Assembly: GCF_044324875.1 (NCBI RefSeq)
Contig: NZ_CP172185.1
DNA: 64,000 nt
Reading direction: 5' to 3' (one strand)
Origin: Escherichia coli
GTDB taxonomy: Bacteria; Pseudomonadota; Gammaproteobacteria; Enterobacterales; Enterobacteriaceae
Each line of letters begins with the position of its first letter. Positions within the stretch are counted from its first letter, which is position 1. The notes under the pieces were generated by a model that saw nothing but the letters and a program-made list of their open reading frames with translations, was not told the DNA's origin and did not search any database. A program made the position numbers and the translations under genes. Below, in pieces: positions 57,645-57,780 of the stretch.

Positions 57645-57780
57645 TATTTACTCTATGGATTTCGAGTTGCAGGAAGGCGGCAAGCGAGTGAACTCCAGGA
57701 GCTTACAATAGTAAGTGACTGGGGTGAACGAACGTAGCCGCAGCACATGCAACTTGAAATACGACGAGTAAATCGTTTGC
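57645..57780. repeat. ERIC / IRU repetitive element
   Basis: GTGAACTCCAGGAGCTTACAATAGTAAGTGACTGGGGTGAACG matches the ERIC core inverted repeat. Confidence 0.8.

Follow-up and report, generated by a model that had tools for sequence, protein, structure and literature searches.

The spacer between the divergent genes ydiJ and ydiK of Escherichia coli contains a conserved and structured stretch, and the question was whether it is a gene, a small RNA or a repeat, and whether it differs between strains. The locus was analysed in a 64,000-nucleotide stretch of contig NZ_CP172185.1, referred to as the window, in which the spacer is 388 bp long. A sequence-only reading had proposed a full-length ERIC element, not a gene, situated upstream of ydiK and possibly variable between strains. 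ERIC is a 127-bp miniature inverted-repeat element which codes for no protein and has dispersed copies in the genomes of enterobacteria, and those of E. coli have already been catalogued. The family was described in 1990–91 (Sharples & Lloyd 1990; Hulton et al. 1991) and also treated by Wilson & Sharp 2006. The features of the locus are collected in Table 1.

Table 1. Features of the ydiJ-ydiK region in window coordinates, and ERIC copies at the equivalent position of other loci. RNA 5' ends are those of K-12 in the part of Table S1 of Kim et al. 2012 considered here (PMC3415461).
Feature	Position	Strand	Remarks
ydiJ, D-2-hydroxyglutarate dehydrogenase	54502..57558	-	100%-identical RefSeq record; start codon 89 bp from ERIC
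Direct repeat GTGATGT, copy 1 (7 bp)	57583..57589	+	ancestral flank; kept in E. albertii and E. whittamii
Whole insertion relative to the empty site, 181 bp	57590..57770	.	edges ambiguous by 1 nt; TA at both junctions
left60, ~57 bp of single-copy sequence accompanying ERIC	57590..57646	.	own small hairpin CTTTCAG..CTGAAAG
Direct repeat GTGATGT, copy 2	57637..57643	+	directly left of ERIC; kept in E. albertii and E. whittamii
ydiJ second 5' end	57638 (K-12 1766789)	-	25 reads; 80-nt leader; 9 nt outside ERIC left end
Full-length ERIC (IRU / RU-1), 126 bp	57647..57772	.	alignment to published consensus and nhmmer profile
Left terminal inverted arm of ERIC, ATTTACTCTATGGATTTCGAGTTGCA	57646..57671	.	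preceded by TA at 57645-57646
Central core of ERIC with ERIC-PCR primer sites, conserved	57687..57730	.	primer matching
ydiK-sense 5' end, inside ERIC loop region	57717 (K-12 1766868)	+	3 reads; 230-nt leader
Right terminal inverted arm of ERIC, TGCAACTTGAAATACGACGAGTAAAT	57748..57773	.	TA at 57769-57770
ydiJ main start	57787 (K-12 1766938)	-	49 reads; 229-nt leader
-10 box TACAAC of main ydiJ start	57795-57800	-	preceded by TGg; block kept in genera without ERIC
ydiK-proximal start	57885 (K-12 1767036)	+	2 reads, weak; 62-nt leader; 113 nt downstream of ERIC
ydiK-sense 5' end, inside ydiJ	not mapped to window (K-12 1766581)	+	4 reads; 517-nt leader
ydiK, AI-2E family transporter	57947..59059	+	100%-identical RefSeq record; start codon 175 bp from ERIC
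rprA sRNA gene	59245-59352		after ydiK; Rfam RF00034, 118.7 bits, full length, intact
ERIC, Enterobacter sp. JUb54	L042:1137-1340		truncated ERIC beside full one
ERIC, Enterobacter genomosp. O	L048:1206-1314		one ERIC, opposite orientation
ERIC, locus L052	L052:1090-1213 and 1349-1457		two ERIC copies

Along its whole length, the stretch aligned with the 127-nt E. coli consensus that Delihas 2007 prints on the basis of Wilson & Sharp 2006 (PMC2759123), with 103 identical positions out of 126 (81.7%) and a single 1-nt deletion in the core, which gives the length of 126 bp. The orientation of the printed consensus corresponds to the - strand here, i.e. the ydiJ-sense strand. The identity to the Salmonella SeRU-1 reference copy was 109/126 (86.5%), and that to the consensus of 11 non-Escherichia copies 84.4%. 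The nhmmer profile, built from 11 copies from other genera and viral-contig flanks with zero Escherichia sequences, matched with 108.6 bits (E 6.4e-35) over model positions 2–129 of 131. The full length of the element was thereby confirmed at 57647–57772; the span of 57645–57780 read from the sequence alone was about 8 nt too long on the right. A poor alignment to the consensus, named beforehand as the result that would speak against ERIC, did not occur, and the RefSeq annotation agrees with the location between ydiJ and ydiK.

The site of primer ERIC2 was matched in 20 of 22 positions at 57709–57730, and that of ERIC1R on the - strand at 57687–57708 in only 15 of 22 ungapped positions because of the 1-nt deletion in the core (primer sequences from PMC3696847). 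The core pattern occurred once in the window and in none of 100 shuffled sequences. The dinucleotide 5'-TA-3' at both termini, a feature of the ERIC family (PMC2229807 Table 1; PMC3184786), was present at both ends, and the terminal TATA was degenerate (TTTA and TAAA). The ydiJ-ydiK copy thus has in common with ERIC, also named IRU or RU-1, the length of 126–127 bp, the similarity over the full length, the primer-site core, the palindrome with its arms and the terminal TA. It further shares with the family a location that is both intergenic and transcribed, the occurrence of many copies in each genome, and presence or absence depending on the strain (PMC2229807, PMC3184786). It differs in the degenerate TATA, the 1-nt core deletion and an extra, unique 57 bp, none of which bears on membership. 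The element is an ordinary full-length ERIC, a member of a known family. REP, BIME and BoxC were ruled out for it, as it aligns with ERIC instead. No table naming the ydiJ-ydiK locus as an ERIC was found in the literature searched.

The ERIC alone, used as a blastn query, matched all but one of the 5426 complete E. coli genomes (5425), and the median number of places in a genome was 11 (range 2–17), which is in line with the 19–21 copies counted in K-12 by profile methods (PMC2267715). Further copies at unrelated loci were recovered from other genera. Among the matches listed, genomes without the ydiJ-ydiK copy had 3–5 matches compared with 7–13 in the carriers, which suggests that the lineages lacking this copy have fewer, or more diverged, ERIC copies.

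The conserved and structured character of the stretch is accounted for by the repeat, as had been suspected. The two 26-nt terminal arms are 81% complementary, and the + strand of 57640–57785 was predicted to fold into one long hairpin of -61.1 kcal/mol (z -7.6); the corresponding values of the - strand were -43.3 kcal/mol and z -5.4. None of 200 shuffled sequences folded as well on either strand. The K-12 annotation has no gene in the ERIC region of the spacer, which agrees with the view that the element is not a gene. Two open reading frames of 52 and 40 amino acids on the - strand across ERIC were rejected as genes, their start codons being upstream of the mapped ydiJ start; ERICs are described to carry chance open frames (PMC2759123). 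The Rfam families V_AS5 (RF02818) and Ysr49 (RF02766) gave 42.7 and 29.5 bits over ERIC against gathering scores of 96 and 95, respectively, and the element is a member of neither. V. cholerae and Yersinia genomes carry ERIC copies (PMC2267715), and these weak matches most likely reflect such copies in Vibrio and Yersinia. In terms of annotation, the conserved structured non-coding stretch is a repeat and not a gene or an sRNA, and the value of the assignment goes little beyond that.

The suggested variation between strains was studied with a 701-bp query across the ydiJ-ydiK spacer against the 5426 complete E. coli genomes, and it was borne out. The query was fully covered in 4255 genomes (long allele), and in about 1170 genomes it was found in two pieces with 175–181 bp missing (short allele). 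The long-allele strains checked by name were K-12, BL21(DE3), O157:H7, O26:H11, O111:H8 and an ST648 strain, and the short-allele ones CFT073, which has a 213-bp spacer, and an O25b:H4 strain. CFT073 and O25b:H4 ST131 belong to phylogroup B2. The spacer is a clean 175–181-bp length polymorphism, and the variable unit is not ERIC alone but 181 bp. The common empty allele, present in 1164 genomes, has six bases (AGAGAT) more than a rare empty variant, which was found in E. coli FCI17 (L002) and a handful of other genomes. An 80-nt query from this rare variant, GTGATGTAATCG, was recovered from long-allele genomes as two 100% matches which together span 261 bp, and the insert is therefore exactly 181 bp. 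The rare variant equals the long allele minus exactly these 181 bp, yet it is situated on the flanking haplotype of the common short allele; this could be due to coincidence, recurrent deletion or excision.

The insert consists of the 126-bp ERIC and of about 57 bp, designated left60, which is bounded by the two GTGATGT repeats. The segment left60 was present in exactly the 4255 E. coli genomes that carry the ERIC, in a single copy in all of them. No second copy of left60 was detected in the E. coli genomes or in 80 enterobacterial ydiK loci, and two pattern scans of metagenome contigs gave no matches to intermediate alleles with only ERIC or only left60. The insert is flanked by TA on both sides with one extra A, and ERIC's own left flank is left60, so that no clean target-site duplication is assignable to ERIC alone.

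The relation of the insert to transcription was deduced from the K-12 RNA library enriched for 5'-triphosphate ends (Kim et al. 2012, Table S1, PMC3415461), in the part of that table considered here. A simple consensus scan resulted in no promoter-like sites in 57500–58000, and for this reason the statements on promoters rest on the published start mapping. Since the main ydiJ start is at 57787, both ERIC and left60 are inside the ydiJ leader; ERIC begins about 15 nt from the 5' end of the mRNA, and the 181-bp insertion about 17 nt downstream of the mapped start. The 51-mer of this start, including the 50 nt upstream, is identical in K-12 and the window and contains TGgTACAAC, which resembles an extended -10 element. 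In the case of the second ydiJ 5' end, two of the 50 nt before it are different in K-12 and in the strain of the window. In the predicted fold of the leader, a single-stranded, AU-rich linker connects the ERIC hairpin (nt 13–142) with the small left60 hairpin, after which the ribosome-binding region is open, and the second 5' end falls in the linker between the two hairpins. The ydiK-sense 5' ends of 3 and 4 reads in this part of the table are probably noise. The description of ERIC as lying upstream of ydiK was correct by position; with the published K-12 starts, however, the element belongs to the transcribed leader of ydiJ and precedes the ydiK-proximal start. An action of ERIC on ydiK is unlikely because the nearest ydiK start is downstream of ERIC. 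A general outward promoter in ERIC arms was also rejected, as the part of the table considered here has no second start in an ERIC arm.

In the carrier strains, the ydiJ-menI mRNA would thus begin with about 14 free nucleotides; the ERIC hairpin would come next, and then a second, small hairpin separated from it by a short AU-rich linker, for a leader of 229 nt. The leader of empty-site strains would be unstructured and about 54 nt long; for CFT073, this length would follow from the starts mapped in K-12. Taken jointly, the data make it very probable that ERIC and its accompanying ~57 bp form a 181-bp insert in the divergent ydiJ/ydiK control region, within the ydiJ leader, where it is most likely a tolerated fossil. 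The presence of ERIC would require no function, and the element would most likely be a remnant of transposition into a favoured TA-containing site. At most, ERIC may alter the stability or processing of the ydiJ mRNA or supply a minor second 5' end. The kind of element was known beforehand; the modest additions are the 181-bp composite, its placement within the leader of ydiJ, the lack of it in about one genome in five and the recurrent use of the site, all of which fit known ERIC biology.

The counterpoint to a neutral fossil is the low divergence of the insert. Between the window and E. albertii, the identity was 95.3% for ERIC (4.7% divergence) and 91.7% for left60 (8.3% divergence), compared with 94.4% for rprA, 78.7% and 88.3% for two neighbouring spacers, and 68% (32% divergence) for the third codon positions of ydiJ and ydiK. 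The locus-specific deviations of this ERIC from the consensus are common to several species, and copying from other ERICs therefore does not explain the conservation. Judging from these alignments, the cause may be ordinary constraint on the control region or the exchange of a short stretch between species.

In the case of transfer, homologous recombination of a sub-kilobase segment would have carried the long allele between Escherichia species and between lineages of E. coli, and it would be younger than the species splits, the low divergence reflecting its age. We consider this explanation somewhat unlikely, although several observations agree with it. In E. albertii, E. whittamii and a divergent E. 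coli-like genome, the third-position identity was 93–97% in the first 30 codons of ydiJ and ydiK and dropped to 60–75% further in, which with 30 sites per bin is only a weak test. Both alleles are also present within the genus: the long form was found in E. albertii, E. whittamii and Escherichia sp. E1V33, and the short form in Escherichia sp. MOD1-EC7003. The 5' ends of both genes are, however, more conserved in comparison with Salmonella, Citrobacter and Enterobacter as well (63–80%, against about 50%), which points to ordinary constraint at translation starts.

In the case of constraint, ERIC and left60 would be a working part of the ydiJ leader under purifying selection, acting as a stabilising 5' stem-loop, through an RNase E site in the linker or through an outward promoter in the ERIC arm. 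The identity values given above and the deviations shared between species are in favour of such co-option, as is the 25-read 5' end in the AU-rich single-stranded linker, which was taken from the considered part of the start table. Nevertheless, co-option is unlikely: the insert is missing from about 1170 E. coli genomes and from almost every other genus, the hairpin of left60 is not kept in E. albertii or Escherichia sp. E1V33, and no other start in an ERIC arm was present in that part of the table. Furthermore, ydiJ and ydiK are themselves unusually conserved over their first 30 codons, to 93% at third positions in E. albertii and partly even against Salmonella and Citrobacter, and the identity values could be explained by a local minimum of divergence or by a transferred segment. 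That the 181-bp module is a co-opted ydiJ-menI leader element kept by purifying selection across Escherichia and setting mRNA stability, processing or a second start is more doubtful still. If co-option were true, roughly one-fifth of E. coli, including CFT073 and the O25b:H4 strain, would represent a natural short-leader class with different ydiJ-menI expression, and the recurrent Enterobacter insertions at the leader position would be due not to target preference alone but also to selection.

A further point in favour of co-option comes from Yersinia mRNAs, in which ERICs are reported in reviews to change transcript stability via RNase E depending on their orientation (De Gregorio et al. 2005 per PMC2229807, PMC10969869). 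The ydiJ-ydiK copy resembles them in being co-transcribed with a neighbouring gene, in forming a long RNA hairpin and in having an AU-rich single-stranded edge with a mapped 5' end. In contrast, the Yersinia ERICs are situated between or downstream of genes and act on the upstream transcript, whereas the ydiJ-ydiK ERIC is at the 5' end of a leader. The Correia or NEMIS elements of Neisseria are likewise small inverted-repeat elements in promoter and leader regions and can contain outward-directed promoters or sites for RNase processing (PMC2229807, PMC10969869), but they have no sequence relationship to ERIC and their processing is by RNase III, and the analogy is functional only. No published test of the effect of an ERIC at the 5' end of an mRNA in E. 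coli was found in the literature searched, and the locus offers a natural allele pair for such a test. For studies of ydiJ-menI expression, it is of importance that K-12 has a 229-nt ERIC-containing leader which is absent from many pathogenic strains.

The origin of left60 was considered separately. REP, BIME, BoxC and other dispersed E. coli repeats were ruled out by its single copy in all E. coli genomes. It might be a second, internally deleted and decayed ERIC, giving a tandem of a mini-ERIC and a full ERIC as in Enterobacter sp. JUb54, where a recognisable truncated copy is present beside the full one at the same site (control z 3.5). By eye, left60 begins with GATACACTA..TTC..CAGG..CGGC and ends with CTGAAAGGTGATGTTTAT, loosely similar to the ends of ERIC, and Yersinia ERICs of 69–127 bp have been reported (PMC2267715). 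The alignments speak against this origin and make it improbable: the nhmmer profile gave no match at E up to 100, the gapped global alignment against shuffles had z of 1.1 or less, and the split-profile local alignment resulted in z 1.64, with 20 of 300 dinucleotide shuffles scoring equally well.

The direction of the change was determined by comparison with 80 loci around ydiK from other species. About 70 of these enterobacterial loci have no insert, and several Citrobacter species have a 213-bp spacer which aligns without gaps to the E. coli short form. The short form retains 6–7 nt (AGAGATT) aligned to Citrobacter TGAATTT and absent from the long form. As it is collinear with Citrobacter and keeps AGAGATT, the short form is an empty site and not a deletion product, and on this sequence comparison it is taken as the ancestral state. 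The opposite direction, in which the spacer would originally have been long and the short allele would have arisen from it by deletion, would agree with the long allele of the early-branching E. albertii but is highly improbable in view of the ungapped Citrobacter alignment, the retained bases and the many loci without the insert.

The favoured reading of a tolerated insertion is accompanied by repeated use of the same site. ERICs were found in the ydiJ-ydiK spacer of three other enterobacterial lineages, Enterobacter sp. JUb54, Enterobacter genomosp. O and locus L052, in all cases 0–4 bp from the same conserved motif, ATCGTTTGCGT, and close relatives have empty sites. The difference in orientation and the empty sites of the close relatives speak for independent insertions. 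The TA-containing site is most likely favoured for ERIC insertion, as judged from the positions of these copies. At the same point, Salmonella enterica subsp. arizonae (L017) and diarizonae (L021) have an unrelated GC-rich insertion of about 50 bp, and the insertion point of ERIC appears to be an indel hotspot across genera.

Locus L052 is from contig CACSKA010000003.1, which is labelled Chryseobacterium sp. 18061. It carries ydiJ and ydiK of enterobacterial type, with a YdiK identity of 83%, and is similar to Citrobacter sp. 18056 (L057); a wrong Chryseobacterium label is probable, or else a mixed sample.

The rprA gene follows ydiK likewise in E. coli K-12. In the divergent E. coli-like genome L007, the spacer between rprA and ydiL, equivalent to 59353–59487 of the window, showed only 49% alignment to the window, which indicates an insertion or replacement downstream of rprA.
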